Part shown: positions 577-59,600 of the stretch, one piece after another
How the letters are laid out: each line of letters begins with the position of its first letter
Position numbering within the stretch: position 1 is the stretch's first letter
Assembly: GCA_905178155.1 (NCBI GenBank)
Contig: CAJINV010000010.1
Coordinates: 1,819,182-1,883,181 of the forward strand
Reading direction: 5' to 3'
From: Amoebophrya sp. A120
Lineage: Eukaryota > Protista > Dinoflagellata
DNA length: 64,000 nt
The notes under the pieces: model-generated
Databases searched by the model: none
What the model was told of the DNA's origin: nothing
The model's input: only the letters and a program-made list of their open reading frames with translations
Made by a program: the position numbers and the translations under genes

Positions 577-3500
577 CTACACCTCTACCCTCGCCAATCG
601 CGTATGCCAGCCGTGGGCAGCAAAATACTTCTCCATCAGTTCCTCCGCGGCTGCCTTGTACCCTGAAGCCGCTTTGTCACCACTCAATTTCGCCGCGTGC
701 GCAAGCAACTTCACCTGCAAACGCGAAAACGCAAATTTTTCTTCGTTCATCCCCGGGATCGTATCCAAGAAAAAAAATTGCGTTTGTGAGGCAGAAATGA
801 ATGCAGAACAGAACTACACGACGACGACACTTTTCGTGCAAGACAGCCCCTGCCCCAGACTCCTCTTTTCTTCATCACATGTGGTTACTTTAAAACATAG
901 GCTAGCTACGCTTTTCACAGAACAAGTTTGTCATGCTGTTCTTGCTGTCAGCCCAGTAAGAGCGTTACACTAGCACAGTTCATTTTTCTTGGATAAACGG
1001 GGCCAGGGAAGGTTTTCGGGGGCTTCTGTTCCAGCCAGTGGCCGGGTCTGAAGGACGAAGAAGCTTTCGGCTTTGGCACTTGATGTTGCGCGGAGTTATT
1101 CAGAACGGAGGTGGATGCTGCTGCTGCACCAATACGTCCTCGTGGAGCTGGTGCACCTCCACCACCTGCTGTCGTTCTTGGAACTATCTTGTCGGTGAGC
1201 AAAACATTCCGCAGTATGTCGGGTTGCAAATGCTGTTTCCGGAACCTCCGTGCTTGGTTCAAAAACTTGGTCGGGCGGATTCTCGAGAGAGAGGTAGTGC
1301 TGGCGGAGTTTGCTTTAGTACTATAATTCGTTGTGGAATTTATTTGGTGAAGATGCTGGTCGTGCTGCTCCAGAGCGGGCTCGTGGAGGTGCACGACAAG
1401 GCTGTCGCTGGTGTCACCCTCCACCATCTCCACCGCAAGATGCGCAAAGTCTTCCAGAAACCCGGTAATTCTCGGCACCGGGGTTGCGAAGTACATGTCT
1501 TCAAAGACCCGCTTCGCGTGGATATTGTGGCGACTGATCGAAGGAGTTGTCAGCTCCCCAAGGCTATGCATTTTTGCAAAAGTCCCGCAATCGTAGTGAT
1601 TGCAGTCATGGATGACAGATCTATTTTTGTACGCTAACCAGCAACATTACAAATTCCATTTTTCACGCTGACCAAATTTGTAATGCGAGGATTTGAACTT
1701 CTACTAGTACGATACTTTTGCAGTGGATAAGCTTCGTCCATCTCCAGGTCTAGATGATCCAGAAAAATCTTCCCCTCCGCCCCAAAAATCCCCCGCAGGA
1801 ATCCTTCCGGCAAGAGCCGCAGGGGTAGGAAAAGAAGATGCTTGCGCTTCTCCTGCGTCAGTTTCTGTTTCGCTTTCAGGAGCGTGGCTGTTTTGCCGAT
1901 GTTTGTCATGTCGCCAAACAAGCTGGCTGTGCGTGACGGAGAAGCAGAGTCGTCTTGTTGTGCTGGTCCTTGCTGGTCAATCGTTACCATTTCGGAGATC
2001 GCGGAAGAAGAAAACGGACTTCCCGCCCTCAAGAAATGCTCCTTGTCCTTCCTTGTTGTGTTCCCTATCGCTTTATCAAATGTAAAAATGTCTGGGTGTG
2101 GAAGATTCTGAGCCTTGTCATGCATGTTTTGCATGGGCCGCAATGTCTGTGATGCACGCCCTAGCATCACAGATTTTTTGAGGGCTTCGCGATGCCTATT
2201 CCGCATGACAAATGCCCTCTCCGCGTACCAAAAATTACATTCCCTTTGCTGCTCATGCAATACAGATTTTTTTGGAATCCAAATTCAGCATCACAAGTTG
2301 CATTCTTCCAGACCCAGACATTTTTACATTTGATAGACTTGCGCCAACGACTCTGCTGGATGGGGCTCCAGTAACCTCCGGATGTCGTGTATGAAAGTGC
2401 ACAAATCCCGCCCCCCCTCATTTGTCATGCAAAATCCCAAATGCAGGCTCTGCCTCTTGGCTCTGTTTGCATGACAAGCTCTGGTAGCTCAAATAGCACT
2501 ACACAACTCCAGTGTCAAAAGATTAACATTTGCCATGCAGAACCGAAACTCTTGCTGATGCTTGTATTGCCGTTCATGCTACACAAATGCGGGCGAGGGG
2601 GAGTTGTGCACTGTCACATCGTGCGAGAGGTCTTCCCGATTAACCCCGAGTTTGCTGGTTTGCGAGTCGAAATTCAAGTCCTTGAAGAGCGCCTGAGTCT
2701 TGTTCCCGATGGCGTTTGGATATGAATCCGCAGACGCGTGGTCGTCCTATCGTACTACTAGTAGAAACTGCGATACAAACTTCTTCAGCATTACGAGTTT
2801 GCCATGCTGATTTAGCTTTAAGAAAAAATAATTTTATGATGCATGATTGTGATTCTAGTACGAGTACGATGCCACATAAATTGCTGCGCCGGATATTGGA
2901 ACGCCTTTGCCAAAATGCCGCCCCGGGATCATCACGTAGTCTTCGAGGGCTTTTTCGTGTGTATCCTATGTAAAACAAACGTCCCCACCCCACAGTTGTC
3001 ATGCAGATTTGCATCTACAGGAACATCTGCAATGCGCATCCGCATGAGAGGACTTTGTAGTGATGTTTATGAGATTTGTAATGCTGTGAACAGGATGAGC
3101 ATGCGTCTTTGTGATGCGGCTGTCCTTGACAAGCCCGACTATACTACAGATGGAAACTTGTCATGCATAACTCCCAAAACTTAGAGATTTGTGTTGGAGA
3201 TTTACCAACTTCACTATGGTGTCGGCGGGACGTTTTTTCACAGGATAGTGTGGTTCCCGGTCCAGTGCAAAAACTCCGCTGTCCATGTTTTTCTCCGCTT
3301 GGAATGAGTCGATCACTCGAGCATCACCAGATAGATCACCCGGCGCTTGTCCTGCCCGTAGTCGAGGGCCTGCAATCGCAGTTTGCTCGCTGTAGAGGTC
3401 CTCTGTTGCCCGAATATGATGTCCTCGTGTAGTTTTTAGCGTGACAACTGCACGGTCGCGATCTGGTCGTCCTGACGAAGTTTTTGTTGCAGGGTCTTCT

Positions 3501-6500
3501 GCGTGGTGCGGAACACCAGCAGACTTAGCAAACAAATTCTTGTCGTTCATCCAGAGGAGAGGGCTGGTGGTCCGCTTGTTTATGACCACTTCCCTGGTGG
3601 ATCGTTGTTCATGAGACTGGTCAAGAACTACATCCGTATTTTTCGCATCAGCAACTGCAGGCTCAGCGCCTCTGCTTTTGCTTTTTCCCCCTGCTGGTGT
3701 TCTTGCTGTAGTTGGTGTTGGTTTTATTGCCGCCTCGACGAGGCTGCTTTTTTTGTGGCGATGATGCACTTGGAGCTGCTCCGTACTGGTTCTACTACTT
3801 GTTGTACTTTTTGCAACATCTCCAAACATCAGCTCGGCACCTCGTCCAGCATCTTCTCGTAATCCAAGCAAGTCGGCTTGTGTCAACAAGAAGCTGGTGC
3901 CCCCGTTCTTGCCGGGCGCACCAGATCTTCTCGTAGCTCTAGCTGCACCTCCTCCGGCTACGACGACGCCATCCACAAACCCACGTGATTTAGCTGCAGA
4001 AGAAGAAGTAGGAGAAACAACTCCTGCTCCTCCGAATCGATTGTTTCTACTGTCATCTTCTACTCCACGCGGGTCGTCGTCGTGGTGGAGGTCGAGAAGA
4101 AATTTCTTCTCGACGCGGCTTCTCAACTCCAGACCGCGATCGATCCTGCCTTCCCCGTATGAGTTGCAAAAGTGTCCGGGTCTGGAAGATTCTAAACTTG
4201 TAATGCTGTCTCTGGATTCTAAAAAAAATTGTATTGCATGACAAGCAAGAGGGCTCCAGTTTGTGCTACGCGGAGAGGGCATTTCTCATGCGGTAGAGGC
4301 CTCACAAAGTCCTGTAAATATCTGCGATGCTAGGGAATGCATCACAGACGTCATGGATCATTCAAAATATGCATGACAAAACTCAGAATCTTCCAGACCC
4401 AGACATTTTTGCAGTTGATACTCCGTCTTCGCCTTTCCCTTCCTGTTTCATCACATCGAAGTAGGATTGGTAAGAGCCTGGCTATGCAAGACAAATTTCC
4501 CGCACATGTACAAGATGCATCAAAAATTTCCCCAATTTGGAGCTTGAAGCTTGTCATGCTAAACCAGGATCGAGGCCAAGTTTTGCCATGCAGAAACCGC
4601 ATTTTTACGTGTACAGGAAATTTACTGTGGATACTGGTGTCTTTGGATTGGGCAACCGGATGTCCTCGTCAAAATCGTCGTCGTCTTCAGGTTATGCATT
4701 GCAAAAGTATAATCGTCGTACAACCAGCCGCAATTGCGTTCACGACTTCGCTCAGCACGGGGAATTGCCTACGATGGAACAAATTCATTTCATCTGTCAA
4801 GCATGATTGCAACTCCCACGAGCAGAAGTACGATAAAATTTTGCACAGGATAGCAATACACCTTCTCCTTCTGCGCTTTGCTTGTCGTTGTAGAAAAGCA
4901 GCGGCGTCCCAGCAGCGGCCTTGGCACTTCTGGCGTTCTTGGCGGAAGCGTCGTTCTTGCTCGGTTTGGTATCCTCTACACCGCCTTCCCCGACCAGCAA
5001 CCGCTGCCCGTCTTGGGAAGTAGAGGTAGCACTAACATGATTGCTAGTAGATGATGACTCTAGAAGAAATAACTTCTCGCCGATGATTTTTTGGCTCAGC
5101 TTCCAGTCAAGTTGACTGCCGTTCTGAAAAATCGCGGGCATCTTCAGGTGGTGCGGGTTTTTGTTGGAAGGCAGAGACGAGAAAGAAGCAGATGAAGAAG
5201 CTGTAGTTCTTGATGCGCCACTTTCATGACTGGTCGCGTTCTTATTCCCCGACACGCCACCTTCTAGCCGTTTCAGTAGGTACTTTTTCAAGTGCTCTGA
5301 CATCACAGAGGACAGCCTTCCCAGGCCCCACGTCACAATCGCGCGAAACCACCTGCTCGGGCCCGACTGCACGTAGTCGTGCGGGTTCGGGATAGTTTTG
5401 CTAGCATGGAGTTCTTTTGGAAAGTTGTAGGATAGTTGACGTAGTTGCGTCTGCTCTGATGTATCATCTTCCCGCTGCGAGTTCTTCTCCTCTTCGGGGT
5501 TGATGTTCGAGAAGAGCGAGCTATGTCCAGCCGCATCCACTTCTTGCAACGGCACTTCGACGTCCGCGATGCAGGATTGGAAGTCCAGAAGAAACAACCA
5601 CACCCGCAAAATTTGGAGTGCGTACCAGGCAATCGGGGTGGTTGTTGTGCCAAAGGACGGTGAGTTGATGTCCTCGCCAGGGTCCATTTTTTCGGAAGAT
5701 GAATTTGTCGTACTCGATATAGTTTCCGTGGTATCGTGCCCATATCTTCCAGCGTTTATTTGGCTTTTTTTTTCATCATCGTCGTCGTGCGCCAACCATT
5801 TCTCCAACACAGCCAAAACGTGCAGCTCGACTCTGACGAATTGCAGACAGTAAAACGCCACAACTTCTTATGACAGTGCACAACTCCCCTTCTCCCTCAT
5901 TTGTATAGCATGAACAGCAATACAAGCATCAGCAATAGTGCCGGTTTTGAATGACAAATGTACACTGGAGCGTGGTGCTATTTGAACTACCAAAACTTGT
6001 CACGCAAACAGTGCCACAAGGCAGCGACTGGATTCGGGGTTTTGCATGACAAACGAGGGGAGGGGGAGTTGCGCACTGTCACACTTCTTCCAGCAAGTCT
6101 TCGCATCCGATCTGCAATTCCAACAAAAAACGTTTCTCCAACGTTTCCAGGAGGTCACGAAGACGAAATGGGGAGTGGAAAAGATCATGGGCGGCGGGAT
6201 AATCTGCACCTCGCGACGACGAGGAGGAGGACCGCTGGTCTGCCTGTTTGAAGGGCTCTTTGTTCGGTAGCTTTCGAGCGTACGTATCCAGGCTCCGACG
6301 GCGGCGGGCAGAGGAACTTTCATTAAACAAGCCCCCCTCGGTCAACACCTCCCCACCTTTTTCCTCATCGTCCCGCTCGTCATCTGTGACAAGCAGCGCC
6401 AATATGATACTGCACAACCCCCCCTCCACCTCATTTGGAATGGCACAAATAGCAATACAAGCGTCAGCAAGAATGCAGGTTTTGCATAACAAATTCATTC

Positions 6501-36962: not shown

Positions 36963-39900
36963 TTAGCTTCCCGCGACCTGGGACGTGGATACCTCCTCGA
37001 CGGCCGGGATGTCGACCGGGGCCGCTACTGGTGCGACGGATACCACCTCCTTTCCCGCCGTGCTCGTAGTAGTACTCGTTTTCTCATCATACAAATCCAC
37101 CGCGCGATTTACCGTAGACAGCGTCTTTCCGTTCAGGTATTTCGCGTCCAGTGACTTCCCCGTGTCGATGGCCTTACTCACACCAGTCTGCAGGTTGGAG
37201 CCGAACCTGGTGATGTAGTATTGGGAATGGAGATGTAGATTAATATCGTTATTCATGACGATATTCGCATGTTGAAGTAGAAGTCTTCAGGTTCAGATGC
37301 AGGGCAGGTAATTGCCAGCCAGCATCCAGTTTTAGTGATAGTGTAGTTTGTTCTATGCATGACAAACTCGTGGCAAAAACAAAACTCAGTACTTCTTGTC
37401 ATCCAGTTCCTTGGCCTTTTCCAGCAAGACTTTGCCCATCTCCAACACGCTTGGAAACTTCCTCTCCGCAAATTTGGCCGTCCCCACCGAGGTGGAGACC
37501 ACAGTGGACAAAGCTGTCTCTTGCACGGCGGCGACGGTGATCTTTGTGTAAACTTCGTTGAACTGCTTGATCACCTGCTCCGGGAGTTTGCCCTCCGTTA
37601 TCTCCTTACCTGATAAAAAGGTTTTATTTTGGGTTCAATATGTTTGTCATGCTGCTCCTGCAGCATGTGCATCGCATGATAAGGTCCTGTGATGCAAGAC
37701 AAATTCTCGCAGCACAAGCACCACATTGACATTCTGATAATTCTCAACAAAAACACAAATTCTATACGTAATCCGTTAATGGCCGTGAACGTCTGCAGGT
37801 AGAGTTCTTTCAGCGTTTCCTTTCCCTCCGTCAATTTCTTGCCGAGTTTTTCGGTGTCAATCAACTTCTCGAGCAACTCCACGACTTTCGCGAACTTTTC
37901 CGTGATCATCTTCCCCTTCTCGGTCTCCTTGAAATCCGCAATGGCGGTGGCAATTTGCACTTTCAACTGCGCCAGGGCCTGCTTCGCGTCCTGTAGGTTG
38001 ACGCTGACCTTTGAGGCCGTGGATGTGTAGTAACTGACCGCGAGCTGCTTGTTTTTCGTGAAAATCTCCTCGATTTGCGACTTCAGGAGGTTTATCAACT
38101 GCAAAAGTGTCTGGGTCTGGAAGAGTCATGCTGTTTTTGCATGACAAAAAAGGTCTGGCGCGGAAGCTCTAGCATCACAGGGCTCGAGAAGCTTCCACAA
38201 TGCCGAATCCGCATGCCAAATCCCCTATTTTGGTGACAAAAAGTGGGCAACTTTTGCTGCCTACTTATGCATGAGATATTTTTCTGTGTTCTGGAATGCG
38301 CATCACAAGTTTGTACTCTTCCAGACCCAGACATTTTTGCATTTGATAATGTTCAGCTTCTCCAGGAGCTGCTTCTGTTGCTCCGGGGTCAGGATTTTCG
38401 AAAATTTGTCCTTCAGCTCGATGTTCTTGATCACTTCCAGCGACTCGAGGTAGTAGGTCTTCAGGTTGATAACCTGTTTGTCCTTGTAGGTAGCCAGTTC
38501 GGATTTCAGGTCCAGGACTTTCTGCTTCGACGCCTCGATGGAAGCGAGGAGCTGGTCTTTACCTGGAGGCGTTTATGAGTTATTTCGTATTGCATTTCCT
38601 TTTTCCAGGATGGAGTCTAGCACGACAACGACTTGATGACTGTGTTGACAAAACTGCACGACAAAGTTTTTCACGGACGTCATTCAGCATGACAAACTTT
38701 ATTGTGCAAAGCATTTTACTACCTTCACTGGTCGTTTTTTTCACTGTTTCCGAAACCTCCTTCAACCCCGTCAAAGCCTTGTCCAGCACATATCATCTCC
38801 AAAAGTATCGCACTCGTAGTAATTGCAGTCATGCATTACAAATTTTTTTCTGAAGGTAAATCCGCATGACAAATTATATTTCTCATGCTGAGGAAATTTG
38901 TCATGCATTTATACGAATACGATATTACTTTTGCAGTTCATAGCACCGCGTTTGCCAAAATTCGCTCCTGCATCGAATGCAAATGTGTCTACCTCTGGAA
39001 GTAGAGTGCAGCAAGGTTTGTCATGCACATTTTGCATGACCTTTGATGTCTGTGATGTATGCCCCGGCATCACAGATAATTCATTTCCGAAATTTTTTTT
39101 ATTCCTGATGCCTGTACCGCATGAGAAATTGAAATGCCGCCTCCGCGTAGCAAAAACTTCGCTCCTGTTGCTGATCACGCAATACAGATTTTTACATCAT
39201 CCAAGGGCAGCATCACAAGTTCAAGCTGCAACCTTGTTCCAGAGCCAGACATATTTGCAATGCATATCCTGCATCTCCACCAGTTTCTTCTTTCCCTCTT
39301 CGATTTTCAGCAAAAAAACTTCCTTCTTCCCCTCGAATTCCGTGTACTCCTTGTATGAGAGTGCACAACTCCCCCTCCCCCTCATTTGTCATGCAAAACC
39401 GCAAATCCATTTGCTGCCCTGTGGCACTGTTTGCATGACAAATTTCGGAAAGCCAAACAGTATTACCTTCGGCCGGTCGTGAACTTGTCATGCGAAGGCT
39501 CCAGGAGTGCTGGCGTTTGTATTGCTGTTCATGCCATACAAATGAGGGGGAGGGAGAATTTTGCACTTTCATACCTTGACCTGCGAGACCACCTCGGTCA
39601 GGGACTTCTCGCACAGCTGGTATTTTTCCGAGATCTGCTCCAAAGATTTCGTTTTTAAATCCTCTTTGATAGAAGTAATGTCCTCGATCGCCTTCTCCGT
39701 TTTTTCTTGCAGCTTGGTTCCCGTGGTGGACGCGGTGTGATTCAGTTTCTCCTGCATTTCCTTGAGCTGCGCGAGGGTTTTTTCCAGGTCGATGTAGTCA
39801 CTGAGTTTGGACTGCACGGTTTGCAAGTACGACTGGGCGCCGGACAGCTTGGAAAGGAAATCGGCGCTCAGCTTGGAATCTGATAATTTATCTTTGTTGT

Positions 39901-40923
39901 ATTACAAACGAAAAACGAGTCGCAAAAGTAGGACGACGTTGAGGACCTTAGCACAGTAAGGCTCTCGCGGTCATCCATTGAAGTAGTCAATCTAGCCACG
40001 ACACAATTCGTCACTCTATTTCGAGTATGTCATGCAAGAAGAAATCATGGTGTAGTTGAAACATATTAACAGAAGTAGAACATCATCATCAGCCGGATGA
40101 AGTGGCCCATTCTAGTCGAATTCTAGTACCTTTGTAGTGCTTCTCGACCTCCTCTTTCAGGTGCGCGATGTGCTGCCACGTGTTTTCAAACCCCTTGCGG
40201 ACCGCTTCGGAGTTTGCGTTTTCTTTGAGGCGGACCTGCAACTCTTGGATCGACACGGTTACCTGATAGAGTTATGTACAGTATGCGTGACTTTGTCATG
40301 CGCAATCAGTATCAAAAACAACATTTCTGATGCACCTTTGCTGACACAACAAAATATCGTCGTTAAAGAAGTAAATATACCTTCTTCGCCACATCTTTGA
40401 CACTTTGCTTCACCGATTCCCCCTCCAGCTCCTGCACTGCCGTCAGAGCCGCGTTCAGATGCTCGGTCAAAAACCCAGCATACTTTTTCGCGTAGGATGC
40501 CATGGTGCTGGATGTAGAAGTTGTTGTGCTAGACGGAGATGAAGTACTATTAGTATTTGCCGTGCTAGCCGCGCAAGAGACTGCTTCTTCGTCCTCCTGT
40601 AGTACTAGGAAATCTTGTTGTTCTTGCGAAGTAGATCTCTGTGTGAATCGCGAACTTTCGTGCGCGACCGCGATTCTTTGCCAAATACTTGACGCGGGCA
40701 GTGTTTGTTCCGGCGAAGAAGAGAGGGCGTCTCCTTGTTCTGGAACGACGGTTGTAGCAGAAGCGGAACCAGTGCCGACGCCTAGATCTTGTTGCAGTTG
40801 TTCCCTAACAACGTTGCTACTAGCCTCAACTTCTGTAGTACTAGAAGCTCCTTTATTTCCTGTGCTACTATTGGAAACCTTCTCGGTTGTACCGGTAGTT
40901 GTATCAGACCCCATCATAGCCAC
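36963..40923 (-). CDS. Lys/Glu-rich helical (coiled-coil/amphipathic) hypothetical protein, multi-exon
   Basis: Exon ORFs joined through 4 introners, 4 GT-AG introns and one degenerate intron (~37222-37388); start could be 40923 or 40503. Confidence 0.75.
37610..37767 (-). other. GT-AG intron, apparently introner-derived
   Basis: AC|GTA-TAG...ATC-AG|GTA; internal TGTCATGC/TGTGATGC motifs; frame preserved. Confidence 0.75.
38093..38348. mobile_element. Introner family A
   Basis: TSD AGGTT/ATGTT. Confidence 0.9.
38563..38722 (-). other. GT-AG intron flanked by AGGTA direct repeat
   Basis: AG|GTA...CCAG|GTA; GCATGACA inside; frame preserved. Confidence 0.75.
38791..38942. mobile_element. Introner family B
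   Basis: TSD GCACA/GCACC. Confidence 0.9.
38971..39266. mobile_element. Introner family A (CAT variant end)
   Basis: Perfect TSD TCCTG. Confidence 0.88.
39354..39573. mobile_element. Introner family C
   Basis: Perfect TSD CCTTG. Confidence 0.92.
39880..40129 (-). other. GT-AG intron
   Basis: G|GTACTA...TTATCAG|AT; frame preserved. Confidence 0.7.
40263..40380 (-). other. GT-AG intron, apparently introner-derived
   Basis: AG|GTA-TAT...ATC-AG|GTA; perfect AGGTA repeat; TGTCATGC inside. Confidence 0.8.
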
Positions 40924-46021: not shown

Positions 46022-48441
46022 TCACATGTTCCAGCCCGCAATCTCACAGTTCGCGAAGCTGCGGCCCCCCTGCAAGTGTACCGGAGACACCTTGACACTC
46101 CTCTTGTTCTTTCCGTCTAATGCGAAAAAGGCATCGAGAAACCGGTAGTGCGCCACGATGCCTATTTTCTGTTCCTGGAAGTTTACGGTCGCTTCAAATT
46201 TCGCCATGTTATCACACAGAAAAAAGCAGGCAGGTCAAATTTGTAATGCAAAAATAAATAAACAAAACAATCTGTCTTGCATGTCCTAAACAGCACGCTA
46301 GGGCGTTGCCCATGACAGATTTTTCTGCGTATTTATTTTTGCATTACAAATCTGCCCTGCCTGTTTTTTTCTGTGGGATACATGTACTCGGATAAAAACT
46401 CCTTCGTTTTCTCTGCTCGCTTATCAAAAGCAAAAGTGTCTGGGTCTGGAAGAGTCGTGCTGTTTTTGCATGACGCAGAAGGTGTGCCATGGAAGCTCTA
46501 GCATCTCAGGTTTCACGAAGCGTTCGCAATGCCGAATCCGCATGGCAAGTCCCTGATTTTGGTGACAGAAAGGGGGCATAACTTTTGCTGCCTATGCATG
46601 AGAGATTTTTCTGTGTTCTGAAATGCGCATCACAAGTTTGTATTCTTCCAGACGAGACCCAGACATTTTTGTAGTTGATACCGCTTCATGGTGTCAAAGT
46701 AGTCTTCGAACGGATGGGGGACGACCTTTTTCGTCTCTATCCCCTGAAAATTCACCATCCCCATCCAGTTTGTCATGTAAAACATACATAAAGTCCTCAG
46801 TTTGTCATGCACAAAGTGGATGGGAATGGGGATGGTTAATTTTCACGGAATAGTCTCTTGCAGAAACGTATTCGCTAAAACGTTATCCTGCAGCGTCGTG
46901 TCCGTGAAATGCTTTACGTTCGACAAATCCGGCTTGATAGCGCAATCATCTTCTTTTCGAAATCCGTACAGGACTGTTGATTCTTTGCCATTCGCGTTTT
47001 TCTCGTAGTCAGCACCAGCAGCAGTCGGAGTGGTTGCACTAAAAATGCCGGCTGGTGCCGGGGACCCAGGCCCAGCTGATGTTCCGTTGGAGTTGCAGTC
47101 CGGATCTTCGAATTCCTGTAGCGCCGACTCGTGCCGCTTCTTGTTCACAATCTCCTTCTCCAGCATTTCGCGTTTTTCCCCGTTCAGGAGTGAGCGCAGA
47201 ATCCAGTAATTCTTTTCCAGCAAGTCCTCCTCGAGGAGCGAAAAATCAAAGTCCAGATCGCACTGATTCTTCGTTTTGGAGCTGAACAAAAACTTCAGCC
47301 TCTGCGCGTAGTCACAGGGGATCCCGTCGGTGTAGCGAACCCACTCCCGAATCATCGGAAGCACGACGAACTTGATTTTCTCTCTGCCCGGATGGTTTTT
47401 GAACAGACTGTTGCAGGTTTGCAGCGTTTATCAAAAGTAAAAATGTCTGGGTCTGGAAACTTGTGATGCTGGGTGGCGTCTCATCATGAGGCTACAAATG
47501 CTGGCTCAGCATGACAAGTTTTTGAGCTCCTAGGTGTTGCCTATTCTGCATGACAAACTGCGCTTCTGCATCACAGACAAGCGGAGCTCTTGGGGAACGT
47601 GCATGACAGATTTTAGAGTCATGCCAGACAAGCATGACAAACATGAATTCTTCCAGACCCAGACATTTTTACAGTTGATAGCGTTCGCCTCAGGGGGGAG
47701 ACGAAAACCGTGTGGAAATCTACGTTTGCCAACAGATGCGCCCGCTTTTCCGTCTGGAGCACACCGTAGGGGTGCAACGGGCAGTCGACCAGGGACCTCG
47801 CGGTGCCGATCTTCACCGTCATGCGCTGCTCGAAACTTTCAAACGGCTATCCTGTGCAAAAACGTCCCCACCCCAGAGCTGTCATGCAAATCTGCATGCG
47901 AAAAAAGTTTCGCATGCGGAGCCCCATGAGAACCGTTTATTTTGCAGTCGTGTTTTGGCATTTGTCTAGCAGATTTTCCATCTTGACTCTGGTGCAGGGA
48001 CGTTTTATTTACTCAGGATAACGGCTCCTGTTTCCTCAGTTTGTACTTGTCAAAAAACTTCGGCAATTTAGAGGCCATCTGGGCGTAGTTTGCGCAACTA
48101 ATCGCGTGGCGCACGCAGATGACTTTCGACTTCTCCACGTCGGTGCAGGGCGTATTCGTGCCGAAAGCGTTTTCCAGAGTCGGTTCATAATCGAGCAGCT
48201 CCTGCATCTTGGTAGCGAGACACTGTTCCACAAACTTTCGCGTGTCGTGGTCTTCATCCGTTTGCTTGTTGAGGTAATTGTTGTTATCACCGGAGGACGA
48301 AGACGCTGCTGGTGCAGGTGCTCCGCCTATAATTGCGCCCCCAGACGACCCGGAGGCATTTTTTGTCGTAGTTTCTGGTGCTCCCATGTTGTTTTCGTTC
48401 TGCTGCGGGGAAGACTCACTATACGTGCCGCCCATGACCAC
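46022..48441 (-). CDS. Histidine phosphatase / phosphoglycerate mutase-like protein, 6 exons
   Basis: VICVRHA, VFVSPLRRTL, LPMIRE, IGIVAH, FANCE motifs; 5 introner introns. Confidence 0.88.
46210..46380. mobile_element. Introner (singleton family, long TIR)
   Basis: ~50-bp TIR TATCMCACAGAAAAAA..GCAGG..TTTGTAATGCAAAAATAAATA; perfect TSD CATGT. Confidence 0.92.
46422..46680. mobile_element. Introner family A
   Basis: TSD TCGCT/CCGCT. Confidence 0.9.
46738..46852. mobile_element. Introner (singleton, smallest: 115 bp)
   Basis: TIR TAT.CC.TGAAAATT.ACCATCCCCAT; perfect TSD GTCTC. Confidence 0.9.
47429..47680. mobile_element. Introner family A
   Basis: Perfect TSD GCGTT. Confidence 0.92.
47848..48020. 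mobile_element. Introner family D (short derivative)
   Basis: Perfect TSD ACGGC; resembles 58513-58792 with an internal deletion. Confidence 0.9.
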
Positions 48442-53692: not shown

Positions 53693-56600
53693 TCAAAAAC
53701 AAGAAATACGTTGATCACGAGCTGCAGCTGCCCCGGCAACCTGCTCCTGCTGGTAAAAACGAGTAGCAGATTCATGTTGGTCCACATGATGGCGCTGTTG
53801 ATAGTTTTCGCCGCCACATTGCTCAACTTGTTCACGCCGACATGATGTTGATGCGCCAGCACTACTACCTCCTAGCCAGCACGATTTCCCCTCCTCCAAA
53901 ACTTGTTTTTCCAATTCTGGTATCAAATGTAAAAATGTCTGGGTCTGGAAGAGTTATGCTGTTTTTGCATGACACAGAAGGGGCGGCATGGAAGCTCTAG
54001 CATCACAGGTTTCGAGAACCTTCCGCAATGCCGAATCCGCATGACAAGTCCCCTATTTTGCTGACAAAAAGTGGGAGCTTTTGCTACGTATGCATGAGAG
54101 ACTTTTCTGTGTTCTGAAATACGCATTACAAGTTGCATCCTTCCAGACCCAGACACTTTTGCATTTGATATCCGGATTTTTTTCCAGTACTCCCTCTTCC
54201 AGATATATGTAGTCAAACCGGAAATCTTGCTTCAACCGCTGGCGCCAGGCTTTTTCGTGGTCGAAGTAGCGGTAGTCTCCCTTCTCAAATTCACTGTTGC
54301 ACTCCCTCGGCTCCGACTCCCGCTGAAACCAGAGATTGTAAAGTTTGTGGTAGCGCCAACCCAATTTTTCCAGCTGCGCCGCGGCCAGCAACTGGTCGTG
54401 GCTGTTTTTTTGGTAGTAGAAAACGAAGAAAAGCGTGTCCAAATCGTATTTCTCTTGCTGATATGCATGGCAAAAGCATCGTGCGTAGTATAAATCGCAT
54501 GACAAATTTCATCTTCAAGAAGAAAATGGGAATTAGAATTTGTAATGCAAAATTAGGTACGAAAGTAGATTTGTCACGCATGCCTGCACTTACTAATAGT
54601 ACGATACTTTTGCACTGCATAGCTGAAAATGCTCCTTCGTGAGGATGTTTTGCGGGATCCTCGGCTGAGTCGACGGGTACAGATGCTGGGGCTGCTGGAT
54701 CAACATCGCGCTTGTTGTCCTTTGTGCTGCCTGCTGCTGATGCATTGGAAGATTTGTAGAACTTGCGGTGTGGGTGTAGGGAAACCTGATGGATATGATC
54801 ATGAAAATAATCGTCGTGCGAACCAGTCGTCTGAAAGGGGAAGTTCTTTCGGAACAAATTGAAAAAATTTTCGAGATTTTATAGATAGAATGTGCACGAC
54901 AGGACCGGAGAATCTTCATAAAGTGGAACTACAACATACGAACAGAAATAGCTACCAAGAAGTCTACCAAGGGTAGTATCGGGGGACGGGCATATGGTTT
55001 TCGGTAGAAGCACTCGGACGGACCTTGGAGGTGGTCGCACTCGCAGCTTCGTTTACGAAGACTTGTCGCCCCTTATCATGAGCTTCTCTGCCGCAAGAGC
55101 TGCCACGTCGGAGTCCAACATCTTCCGCTCCAGCATTGTTGAAGACAACGGCCGGTGCATCACGCATGTCCACGTCACGTCGGGAGCTGCCAGGAACTCC
55201 TCGTCCTCCACTGGTGCGCCCACCATACTCTGGCCCTGGCGCCGCATTTTATGCATTGCAAACATGTCTGGGTCTGGAAACTTGTAATGCATGGCTGCGT
55301 ATTGCAGTGCCACTGCAATACGCAGCCGTGCATGACAACGTTACGTATTCCACATGACAAAGTACGTTTTTGCATGAGCATGACAGGTAAGATTGCCTTT
55401 GCGCGGCTATGCAACACAGATTCTCGAGTCATGCCAGACAAGCATGACAAAAATGCACTCTCCCAGACCCAGACACATTTGCAATTCATACATGTCGTCC
55501 GACGACGACATCCTGCTCATCCCAATCCTGTGCAAAAGTATCGCATTCGTATAAATGCAAGTCTTGCATCACAAATTTTTTTCTCAAGGTAAATCAGCAT
55601 CACAAATTTCATTTCTCATGCTGAGGAAATTTGTAATGCATTTATACGAGTACGATACTTTTGCAGTTCATAATCCCAATCTGAATCCAACTGAAAATCG
55701 TCCGAGGAAGTGTCCGACCCCGAGTCCGTTCGGAACACTGGATCCGCCGCGAGGTCCTGTTCCCAGATGATATCGGGATCGGAATGGAGGGTGTCAGTTA
55801 GGGGCGACGAGGATGCACGCGGGGCGGCGCTTTTTGATTCGTCGCGTACGTGTTGCTGCTGATCGTAGTACAACTTCCTCGCGCAGAAGTGGTCTTCCTG
55901 GTGGGCAGTACCCCGCTCAAGAAGGTGCTCGCCCTCGACGTTGTGCTGAGAGTTGATGTCCTTCTCCTTCATGTAATACAACCCACTGCCCGTTTGTCTA
56001 CTTTGTGTGACGGCTTTATGGCGACCCCCTGTAGTTTCCTCCGTACCTCTTCCTCGAACACGAGAGCCATCGCCTTTGCTTTTATCCCGTAGGAAGCCGT
56101 CCTCGTTGTTCTTTCTCACCTGCTCTTTGTAGTCGCGATGCTGTACTGTACTCGCAGTACCGCGAGGAGCAGGACCCGGGTGATCATGCTGATGATGTTG
56201 ATTCGTCGCAATAAACATGGACTTGGTTCGCCTCGTCGAGTAGCTGTCATCGTAATCGAGCATACTGTGCAGACTCAAAATCTTCGGCTCGGAGAAGGTT
56301 TTTGTCGTGCCAGCAGCGTCGAGATTTGTCTTCACGTAGTGGTCGACGTCGACGACGTTCTTCGTGCTAGATGAAAAATGCTGCTTGCTCTTATTTTCGA
56401 AGTAGCTCGCATGCCCAGCCTGAAACAACTCGAATTCCCTCTGGTTTTTGCAGCGGAAGAGCAAAGATCCGGATCCGGGCCGCTTGATTTTTTCTTTGTC
56501 GGTGTTTTCTTTAACGTCGACCGGAGCTGCAGTAGAGGACGAACTATTTGCTGCAATTCTATCTGGATTCATTTCTGCACTTGCTGTGGAAGTCCTCGCT

Positions 56601-59600
56601 CCTGCTGCGCCTGGGTCAGCAATACCTTGACGTTGACCTTCCTCGTCCGCGGGAAGTGCTAGAGCTAGACCGTCGTCGTCCTCCTCCTCTCCAGTTTTCT
56701 CATTCTGCTGTCCTGTGGCCGGTAGTTCTTCCACCTGCTCTTTTGCTGGCTTAGAAGCTGCATTTTTCCTGTGCAGCTCCTCCCTTGCAGCTGCAGTGGA
56801 GCAGAACTGCGCGTGTCCAGAGGTAAACAGCTCGACCTCGGCGGGGTTTTTCAAGAGAAAAATTGATTTTGGGTTGGTTTCCGGGCTCGTGTTGAAGGTT
56901 TTTTCAATCTCTTTCAAACGCAATTTCAGCTGGTTGTGTTTCTTGTCTTTTTGCTGAACAATGCGAGCAGGAGGGTTGATACTATTTTCCGAGGTGGCCT
57001 GCCTTAGGTTTTCCTTTTCAGCTTCAGCGTCCGCTGCTGCAGTATCAATGGCAAGTCCTGGAGCACCTCCGCTGCTTGTTGTATGTACGCCAACAGGTGG
57101 ACCTCGTCCAAACGAACTACCCTGGTCGCCAGATGTACGGTTTTTGCCACACAACGACGACGAAAAATCTTGTGGATTTTCGACATTTTTTGCTTCCTGG
57201 GTACTAGAACTAGGAGCACCAGCTGTGGTAGTCCTCAGAGGTAGCGCCACGGGGATGACGTCAAAAATTTTGGAAGAGGAGTTGGCTGTCGGCCGCGGGT
57301 GCCTCAGATTGTTTGTAGCGACTTGCTTCTCGAACATCGTCCCTGGCGGGGCAGGGGGAGGAGCACCTCCACCTCCTCCCGCACCAGCATCAGATGTCGT
57401 AACATTTTTTTCCAATATCTTAGTTCCGCTCGTCGTAACGCCCGCACCCGCTCCGTTTGAAGAAGAAAATACTGGGTTATGCACCGCCAAGCCTTCCTGT
57501 ACGAGCTGCTTCTCGAGTTCTTGGTGGAGCAACTCTCGGTCGCAGAGCGACTGCAACCGCTTCCGTTCCTTTTCCTGCGGAAAGAGGACCTGCAGTTTCA
57601 CGATTTATCAACGTGCCAAATTCAGCATGCTCTACGAAGCAACAAATCAAAATAAATTCTCAAACATGAGGGTGAAAAATTTATTCCGTTTCAACATGAT
57701 CTTCATTGTGCTCAATACGCTACTTTTAAGCCAAACGATCACTACCGGCGACACAGTTTCCGGTAGCAGCTTTTGTAGCTCCAAAACTGAGGGTGGTCGT
57801 GATTGTCTCGGATGCAATAGAGGGCCAGTCGTCCTCATCTGCGGGTCTGTTCCGTTGTACATGCCCTGAGGGTGGATATGGTCATGCCCCCGCGGCAAAG
57901 TAGGATCGCCCGTCTGTAGTCCAAGTCCACCTTGCCCAACATAATCTGGTCGCGCCGGTCGTGCTGGTGCAACACCCCCACGACCTGGCGGCTGCCCAAA
58001 ATTGAGCGCCGGGAGTGGGGGCGGAGTGGTTGAGTTAAAAGGGTAGGAGGTCGCGCAGCCCCCGCGTTGGTGGAAATTTTGTTGTTCGAAAGAACTTCTT
58101 GTGTGATGATGTCCCCTGCTGGAAGGAACAAAGGGACGGGGACACGGGCCGCCTGACAAAGGATCAATTATAGGTGGACCACCACCAACAGCCCGCTGGT
58201 GCATATCAAATGTAAAAACGTCTGGGTCTGGAAGATTGCAACTTGTCATGCTAAATCTGCAGCATGCAAAAATCTGTGCTGCATGATTACCAAAAGTCGC
58301 CCAATTTTGACCAAGTCGGGAGGTAGTTTCTCATGCAGGATAGGCATTAGAAAGGTCTCGCAGAATCTGTCATGCTAGCTCCGGCATTCCAGACCTCATG
58401 GGTCATGGAAAAGCAGCATGGCAAATCGCGCATTCTTCCAGACCCAGACATTTTTACACTTGCTAGTGCATCTTCGCCTCTAATTCCGCAGGCGTGGGGA
58501 TTCTCATCGGAGTATTCTGAGTAAAAACGTCCCCACCCCAGAGTTGTCATGCTAATCTGCATGCTGAAAATGTTTCTCATGCGGAGCTCCATCAGAAGCC
58601 TTTTCTAGTCGTGTTTTGGAATCTGTCATGCTCCAATCAGCATGACAGACTAGATCTGTGATGCTGCTCAAACTAGCTAAACAGGATCACACTATGAGGA
58701 CAGACTTGTCACGCGAAACCACCAAAGCTGGCTGATTTGTCTAGCAGATTTCCCATCTGGACTCTGGTGTGGGGACGTTTTTGCTCAGGATATGGAGGCT
58801 GCAGGTACGGCGGGGCGTGACTACCACCTCCCTGCGAACGCCTTTGATGGTCCGGCACCGCAAGTTCGGGGGGCGGGGAGGTGATTTCGTTGCTCTTCGA
58901 GTAGTATCCTGTGCAAAAGTATCGTACTCGTAGTAATTGCAATCATGCATTACAAATTTCTTTCTCAAGGTAAATCCACATGACAAATTTCTTTTCTTAT
59001 GCTGAGCGAATTTGTCATGCATTTATACGAGTACGATACTTTTGCAATGCATAAGTAGGGATAGTTGTGGTGGTACTGTTGCTGATGCTGTTGATGCTGC
59101 CCCTGCCCGCCTCCTGCAGCTGCAGTAGCAGGTGGCGGCGCATGTTGATTCATGTTCCAGTTGTTCCCTGCTTGGTGATGGCTTTTCAAACATCCACCTG
59201 CAGAAGCTGTTCCGCCCAAAGTGGAAGTGACAGACCCGGGAACGGACGGACTCATGGACAGTTTCCGAATCGTCTCCAGCTGCACATACAATGGCGGCTT
59301 TTGGTTCAGGGGCGGCGGGGGAGGGGCGCACTTCGGCGGCGGAGGGTGGGAATGATAGGACGAGTTGTAGGACTGAGTTGAATGGGTATGATGTTGACCT
59401 CCAGTTGTGTCTTTGTCGAACGACGAAAAAGTTTTCCCCCGTGTCTGCCGCGGACTCCGGTCGCACAAACTCGTTCCACAGTCATCGAAGTGGGTCGAAA
59501 GGGAAATTTGCGGCTGGAGCTTCGGATCAACGTCTTCTACTTCATGCGGATGCGCCTGAAGATTATCATATTGCAACTCGGTTTCTTGCTCAAAAATTTT

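Follow-up and report, generated by a model that had tools for sequence, protein, structure and literature searches.

Repeat-less GT-AG introns beside introners in a gene of Amoebophrya sp. A120: likely old introner descendants, and an apparent cut register in repeat-bearing copies

Can an ordinary GT-AG intron be the remains of a transposon-like insertion? The question is raised by a 64,000-nucleotide stretch of the dinoflagellate Amoebophrya sp. A120 (contig CAJINV010000010.1, positions 1,819,182 to 1,883,181; hereafter the window), where introners bounded by inverted repeats share a gene with GT-AG introns that have none. A preliminary description of the window held that several of the latter were apparently introners caught converting into canonical introns. 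Six repeat-less GT-AG introns are considered here, five in a gene of 574 codons on the minus strand (36963..40503, the focal gene) and one in another transcript on the same strand (54786..54967). Our preferred reading, to which we assign a probability of roughly 0.55, is that they are ordinary GT-AG introns and likely old descendants of TAT...ATA introner insertions. The more specific scenario of introns caught in conversion, with an AGGTA duplication and an ATA-to-ATC step, was not supported.

The minus strand carries nearly all long open frames of the window. A scan for inverted repeats flanked by 5-bp repeats produced 68 candidates, and 48 of these are credible TAT...ATA elements. Their length is 115-342 nt, the 5-bp target duplication is perfect in most of them, and they form families of 15, 11, 6, 4, 3, 2 and 2 copies plus five singles. 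The 8-mer TGTCATGC is found 85 times in the window, where 2.44 copies are expected, and no Rfam family matched there. The passages on A120 introners in Farhat et al. (2021, PMC7789003) describe inverted repeats of TAT, seven nucleotides and AAA, short direct repeats at the borders and 1954 introner families, with more than 60% of introns non-canonical; our 48 elements fit this account in their TAT and A-run repeats, their border repeats and their many families, and here too non-canonical introns are the majority. Related loci were gathered with a 19-nt piece of the family A repeat, which led to 146 stretches in one public metagenome assembly. The 142 taken (L001-L142, 849 kb, none overlapping the window) bring the total to 913 kb. 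The element scan of the enlarged set yielded 654 elements, 522 of them unique, and for the 247 that lie in predicted genes the strand is known.

Splicing was read from contigs of sequencing runs X3 and X4 (and X6 for 54786-54967), the RNA nature of the runs being presumed. Contigs of four runs cover about 57% of the sampled words from 36-42 kb, and they are taken to be spliced transcripts because their joined pieces yield the single open frame of 574 codons. The main set holds at least 15 contig joints, and counts of RNA-checked introns throughout are those among the joints listed. Exons of the focal gene follow from these joints; translation was read from the ATG at 40503, the frame is open upstream of it, and the true start may lie further 5'. 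The encoded protein is rich in lysine and glutamate, and self-BLASTP yielded the identity match alone, hence no internal repeats that could have copied one intron.

Nine stretches of the focal gene are skipped in the contigs, namely five repeat-less GT-AG introns and four introners. From the 5' end of the gene, the first of the former is 40263..40380 (118 nt; AAG|GTATAT..CTATCAG|GTAACC; joint 40259>40378, both=5, cut +3), with a 5-nt junction repeat AGGTA, one GCATGACA, an inverted-repeat score of 5 against a shuffle mean of 5.6 and a fold z of -1.0. It is followed by 39880..40129 (250 nt; AAG|GTACTA..TTATCAG|ATTCC; joint 39879>40130), which carries one GCATGACA near its middle, by 38563..38722 (160 nt; AAG|GTAGTA..CTCCAG|GTAAAG; joint 38559>38720, both=5), again with the junction repeat AGGTA, and by 37610..37767 (158 nt; TAC|GTATAG..TTATCAG|GTAAGG; joint 37606>37765, both=3), with the motifs GCATCACA and GCATGACA and four of the five bases of the AGGTA junction repeat. 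The last, 37207..37392 (186 nt; GAA|GTACTG..CACCAG|GTTCGG; joint 37204>37391, cut +2), completes the six and was absent from the preliminary description. The intron of the other transcript, 54786..54967 (182 nt), reads TTG|GTAGAC..CCATCAG|GTTTCC (joint 54783>54966).

All six are thus removed precisely, starting with GT and ending with AG on the minus strand, and those named before are real introns with exactly the ends first written for them. No trace of a terminal inverted repeat was found in any of the six, the best scores being at or below those of shuffled sequences, and the TAT-starting inverted repeat of 8-20 nt that joins the ends of A120 introners is absent from every one. End-to-end RNA pairs number 0-5, against 14-20 in all 14 RNA-checked introns that bear repeats, and fold z values run from +0.4 to -2.7 against -2.7 to -14.8. 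Direct repeats of 3-5 nt span the borders of A120 introners; the junction repeats of the six measure 5, 5, 3, 3, 2 and 2 nt and consist of the same letters as the splice consensus AG|GTA, from which they are indistinguishable.

The introners of the same gene are of another kind. One, 39350..39574, contains the family B element 39354-39573 with the duplication CAAGG (joint 39348>39574, cut +1) and is itself a GT-AG intron: the GT donor comes from the G before TAT and the AG acceptor from the duplication. Its repeats are intact, with terminal matches at 16/20 positions, 20 end-to-end pairs and a fold z of -9.6. The other three are non-canonical: 38967..39267 (family A element 38971-39266, duplication CAGGA; joint 38965>39267, both=9), 38787..38943 (family E element 38791-38942, duplication GGTGC/TGTGC; joint 38784>38942, both=5) and 38089..38349 (family A element 38093-38348, decayed duplication AACAT/AACCT; joint 38087>38349, both=1). 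Elsewhere on the minus strand, non-canonical introners are spliced out at 46418..46681 (family A element 46422-46680, decayed duplication AGCGG/AGCGA; joint 46417>46682) and at 58509..58793 (family C element 58513-58792, decayed duplication CTCCA/CTCCG; joint 58508>58794, both=4), the latter seen in one X6 contig of depth 5.9. Across the RNA-checked introns, inverted repeats are present in 13/13 non-canonical ones and in 1/7 GT-AG ones (p=0.0002), as expected from the earlier suggestion that repeat loss tracks GT-AG status. The stronger phrase, that introns had been caught converting, fared less well: no intron in transit was seen in the window, and repeats in the RNA-checked set are either intact or gone, never half decayed.

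The link between the six introns and the introners is their interior. Exact TGTCATGC or GCATGACA is present in five of the six and missing from 54786-54967, so that the observation of a kept motif beside lost repeats stands. The generalised motif TGTNATGC occurs at 12.0 per kb in the 522 unique introners, 503 of which have at least one copy, against 0.10 per kb across the predicted exons (253 kb); its density is about 7 per kb in the five repeat-less introns of the focal gene and about 2 per kb in 35 comparison introns. By presence, it is found in 5/6 of the introns (5/5 in the focal gene) against 9/35. The interior of TGTNATGC / GCATNACA units that marks introners is likewise seen in five of the six, with one or two units each, and 54786-54967 has none. 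Searches with BLASTN and family profiles limit this likeness to a shared internal module of about 50 nt. With nhmmer, a 52-nt stretch of 38563-38722 corresponds to the interior of the family E model (positions 60-111, E=6e-5), 37610-37767 matches the interiors of family F (E=1.4e-4) and family A (E=1.1e-3), and 40263-40380 matches the shared interior module (E=5e-3).

The 35 comparison introns are predicted GTA..YAG introns outside the focal gene; being predictions only, they form a noisy set, and the tests of six against 35 are post hoc. The gene model behind them removes elements first and then allows GT..AG introns only; with a small bonus for GTA/CAG it recovered 6/6 RNA-checked GT-AG introns, and 5/6 without. 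It replaced a first model that had produced spurious long introns. Against this background the six stand out in the exact motif (5/6 against 6/35, p=0.003), in ATCAG ends (4/6 against 4/35, p=0.009), in a second exon beginning with GT (5/6 against 9/35, p=0.013) and in junction repeats of at least 5 nt (2/6 against 0/35, p=0.018). The six are atypical for this genome, where most canonical introns are motif-free (26/35). Among the comparison introns GTAT is the commonest donor (T at +4 in 18/35). An attempt to relate repeat decay to GT-AG status on predicted introns was dropped as unreliable; 37/97 predicted introns of the related contigs match a family, and many of the predicted canonical introns there are full-length elements missed by the repeat finder.

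Where the repeat-bearing introners are cut can be asked of the transcripts themselves, since the mRNA shows which copy of a decayed duplication is kept. Register k is defined on the coding strand such that the intron consists of the target-site duplication (TSD) without its first k bases, then TAT...ATA and then the first k bases of the TSD, i.e., TSD[k:] + TAT...ATA + TSD[:k]. For 38093-38348 (AACAT/AACCT, 5'/3' copy) the mRNA keeps AACAT, so k is 4 or 5; for 46422-46680 (AGCGG/AGCGA) and 58513-58792 (CTCCA/CTCCG) the last base of the 3' copy is kept and k is at most 4. Looser bounds come from 53921-54170 (CCGGA/CCAGA, k at least 3), 55250-55490 (ACATG/AAATG, k at least 2) and 38791-38942 (GGTGC/TGTGC, k at least 1). 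The mRNA at decayed duplications fits retention of the first four bases of the 5' copy and the fifth base of the 3' copy, and each of the 14 RNA-checked introns with repeats permits k=4. Provided that a single register applies throughout, the cut of non-canonical introners appears to be N|N-TAT...ATA-NNNN|N.

This is also the register that makes 39354-39573 a GT-AG intron, and an element with the duplication NNAGG would, in register 4, be a GT-AG intron from the start, as that element exemplifies. Among the 247 oriented elements there are 12 repeat-bearing GT-AG introners, of which 7 are in register 4 against 1 in an antisense control (p=0.07). On the sense strand there is an excess of AG at positions 3-4 of the duplication (26 against 8 antisense, p=0.003), a bias that may stem from coding composition or from a mild preference. 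New in this analysis is the fixed cut register; sections 10-12 and 16 of PMC7789003 give no account of it or of a conversion. The legend of Fig. 3 in the same paper describes the splice position relative to the hairpin as variable and the border position as unknown; the decayed duplications suggest, in contrast, one register.

In the preferred reading, old introner descent, a hairpin would no longer be needed once GT and AG were in place. The intron ends would then drift, and the internal motif would be kept by constraint or would survive as the densest part of the element; the six may have been born canonical or may have changed later. Within families, the motif columns keep the consensus base in 0.84-0.95 of copies; the terminal repeats are similar (0.85-0.90) and the remaining interior columns lower (0.68-0.82), in 6/6 families. 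The pattern suggests that the motif is under constraint, and such constraint would account for the persistence of an exact 8-mer in introns whose repeats have disappeared.

Several results weigh against such a descent. The same constraint seems to make the motif weaker proof of ancestry than a neutral relic would be, and the complete loss of repeats beside surviving exact 8-mers does not fit simple neutral decay. There is no significant nhmmer match for 39880-40129, 37207-37392 or 54786-54967, and 54786-54967 has neither motif nor inverted repeat. Across the 913 kb no family-level homology was found, only the module, whose two matches both belong to a single intron, the remaining five having none. 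Judged by overall sequence, then, none of the six belongs to a repeated family in the window or in the 849 kb of related contigs, although this is a weak negative because of the 1954 families reported for A120 (PMC7789003). At least 6 of the 35 comparison introns match an introner family, and three of those hold most of an element. Finally, three elements are decisive for the cut register, and one of these comes from the single low-depth contig.

The alternative that survives best, although we consider it unlikely, is that none of the six was ever an introner: the motif would have a function within introns, or would have arrived with introner fragments in existing introns, and the AG|GT flanks would express a splice-site or proto-splice-site preference. 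It gains from the structure and ends of the six, which are indistinguishable from random, from the one or two motif copies per intron with no family-level similarity, and from the motif columns that seem constrained within families. The ATCAG end is shared by the motif-free 54786-54967, and among the other predicted introns the exon ends in AG in 12/35 and G follows the acceptor in 17/35. However, canonical splicing does not need the motif, given the 26 motif-free comparison introns, and no nested element with its own repeats or duplication lies inside any of the six. The other four introns of the focal gene are introners, and the portions of PMC7789003 on intron distribution place the non-canonical and strain-specific introns of A120 mainly in poorly conserved genes.

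More doubtful is the route first proposed for this locus, in which introners with an AG|GTA duplication, original or mutated, and an end changed from ATA to ATC are taken over by normal splicing as GTA-TAT...ATC-AG, i.e., in register 2, being non-canonical first and losing their inverted repeats afterwards. AGGTA stands exactly on both sides of 40263-40380 and 38563-38722, 40263-40380 does read TAT...ATC in register 2, and one repeat-bearing introner with the duplication AGGTG is in that register (L003, 2873-3123). The excesses of long junction repeats, second-exon GT and ATCAG ends reported above also speak for it. The first of these is real as a count, but its letters are inseparable from the AG|GTA consensus. 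The ATCAG excess (40263-40380, 39880-40129, 37610-37767 and 54786-54967) likewise holds, but its derivation from ATA is not supported: three of the four ends read TATCAG, and ATC is a poor relic of ATA because T precedes ATA in only 4/522 elements, the great majority ending in GATA or CATA (474/522). An ATC terminus is found in 2/247 repeat-bearing elements, and TAT at +4..+6, the other expected trace, occurs in 1/6 of the introns and in 1/35 of the comparison set.

The register itself tells against this route as well. GT in register 2 occurs in 7/247 elements on the sense strand against 18/247 on the antisense strand (p=0.04); the GT donors noted at the decayed duplications of 762-995 and 2074-2335 are present in the sequence, but are at chance level given this deficit. 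Register 2 accounts for 1/12 of the repeat-bearing GT-AG introners against 4 in the antisense control, and RNA joints at decayed duplications place the non-canonical cut in register 4. The preliminary description had itself remarked that other decayed duplications show no trend, and this was borne out by 51 of them, which do not drift to GT-AG: where only one copy has G at the first intron base, it is the 5' copy in one case and the 3' copy in seven, and where only one copy has AG at the last two intron bases, it is the 3' copy in all three cases. With no partly decayed repeat in any RNA-checked GT-AG intron, a takeover in register 2 is improbable as the origin of the six.

A broader proposal, of which we are no less sceptical, is that all TAT...ATA introners of this organism, canonical or not, are cut at N|N-TAT...ATA-NNNN|N, the geometry being that of a GT-AG intron, with G and AG made optional by the terminal hairpin and TGTNATGC acting as a functional intronic signal that outlives it. 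All three GT-AG bases would then lie inside the intron, so that point changes could canonicalise an introner without touching the protein, and its hairpin could decay thereafter. The element 38093-38348 would represent the start state, 39354-39573 the canonical state with hairpin, and the six introns the end state.

Two open questions are touched by these results, namely the origin of spliceosomal introns and how Amoebophrya removes tens of thousands of introns without GT and AG. If motif-bearing GT-AG introns are decayed introners, single genes would contain a series from transposon to ordinary intron. If the register holds genome-wide, non-canonical introns would be cut where a GT-AG intron would be, which points to a relaxed, hairpin-guided spliceosome rather than a separate enzyme. 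The fixed register is the more useful lead of the two; conversion is a plausible reading of ordinary-looking introns and is not demonstrated.

Introners in the sense of Huff et al. in 2016 (see also Gozashti et al. 2022, PMC9860276) reportedly make GT-AG introns with the help of the target duplication. For DNA-transposon introners inserted in an exon, the relevant passages of Gozashti et al. (2025, PMC12130899) likewise let the element end supply one splice site and the duplicated target the second, and expect introner copies to decay into ordinary-looking introns. The combination of terminal repeats with a duplication that supplies one splice site is found in 39354-39573, which works in the same way, and in none of the six repeat-less introns. 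What differs here is that most insertions are spliced without GT or AG, canonical status being optional. Within A120, the intron statistics of PMC7789003 give 24.8% of strain-specific intron positions as canonical and 15% of canonical introns as bearing direct and inverted repeats. The intron 39354-39573 matches the latter class, and the six, having neither inverted repeat nor family, fall outside the introner definition as set out there.

Nonconventional introns of euglenids have, in the parts of the literature drawn on here, variable borders and an RNA stem joining their ends (PMC3935182, PMC4770533, PMC6221363, PMC12501133). The intermediate introns of that group, which combine canonical borders with a stem, resemble 39354-39573. 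The lineage is, however, unrelated, and the same parts do not report these introns as repeated transposon families that carry target duplications; the resemblance is one of function only.

Possible intermediates were noticed in family E. A copy at 2749..2871 on the minus strand matches model positions 17-134 (nhmmer, E=4.8e-16), has lost about 16 nt at each terminus and sits in a frame-keeping predicted GT-AG intron (2747-2902). Together with 1565-1729 and 4693-4852 it belongs to three copies with damaged ends or no matching duplication, 4693-4852 having no duplication. Frame-keeping GT..AG sites lie just outside or inside all three, and register-4 excision keeps the frame for 1565-1729 and 4693-4852. 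On these features of the sequence, the three look like candidate intermediates.

Some further observations concern the motif and the splice junctions. The unit TTTGTNATGC / GCATNACAAA occurs in every introner family, often as inverted pairs, and 14008-14259 carries five motif copies; its conservation, like that of the terminal repeats and above that of the spacers, suggests that it has a separate function. How the motif is oriented with respect to the intron ends was rejected as an argument, family E having the opposite orientation at the 5' side. In two introns GCATGACA precedes the 3' end by 33 and 37 nt, a placement of note only as a lead towards a possible branch point, and in the three other motif-bearing introns the motif lies elsewhere. 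In both 37207-37392 and 38563-38722, TGTCATGC begins at intron position 29, the preceding 28 nt being dissimilar. At position 5 of the decayed duplications, the confinement of G to the 3' copy, where it is the first exon base after the intron (7 against 1, small numbers), may indicate a preference for G after the acceptor.

Beyond the main set, six of 13 further joints were discarded (55290>58430, 55291>55426, 55450>58431, 58556>58769, 58587>58724 and 58957>59026). Each has one side of 23-29 nt and both=0, and they were judged to be joins between or inside repeat copies. Several contigs link different family A copies (53920-53952, 55290-58431), and chimeras arising from repeats, which are frequent in these assemblies, were set aside. 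From raw-read run X9 there were 95 reads with a partial fit, every one at the repeat at 53.9 kb, where they stack on the family A repeat at 53920-53952 with loose ends on both sides; run X10 gave none.

Two other repeats of the window deserve mention. The block 21850-22420 is made up of a unit like CCCGTAAATTCC, repeated in nested inverted and tandem fashion and bordered on either side by T/A runs; it is unlike the introners and appears to be intergenic. The introner at 46210-46380 is close to one long palindrome, its 70-nt arms being 87% complementary and 31 nt apart, and it has the strongest fold of all introns (z -14.8).

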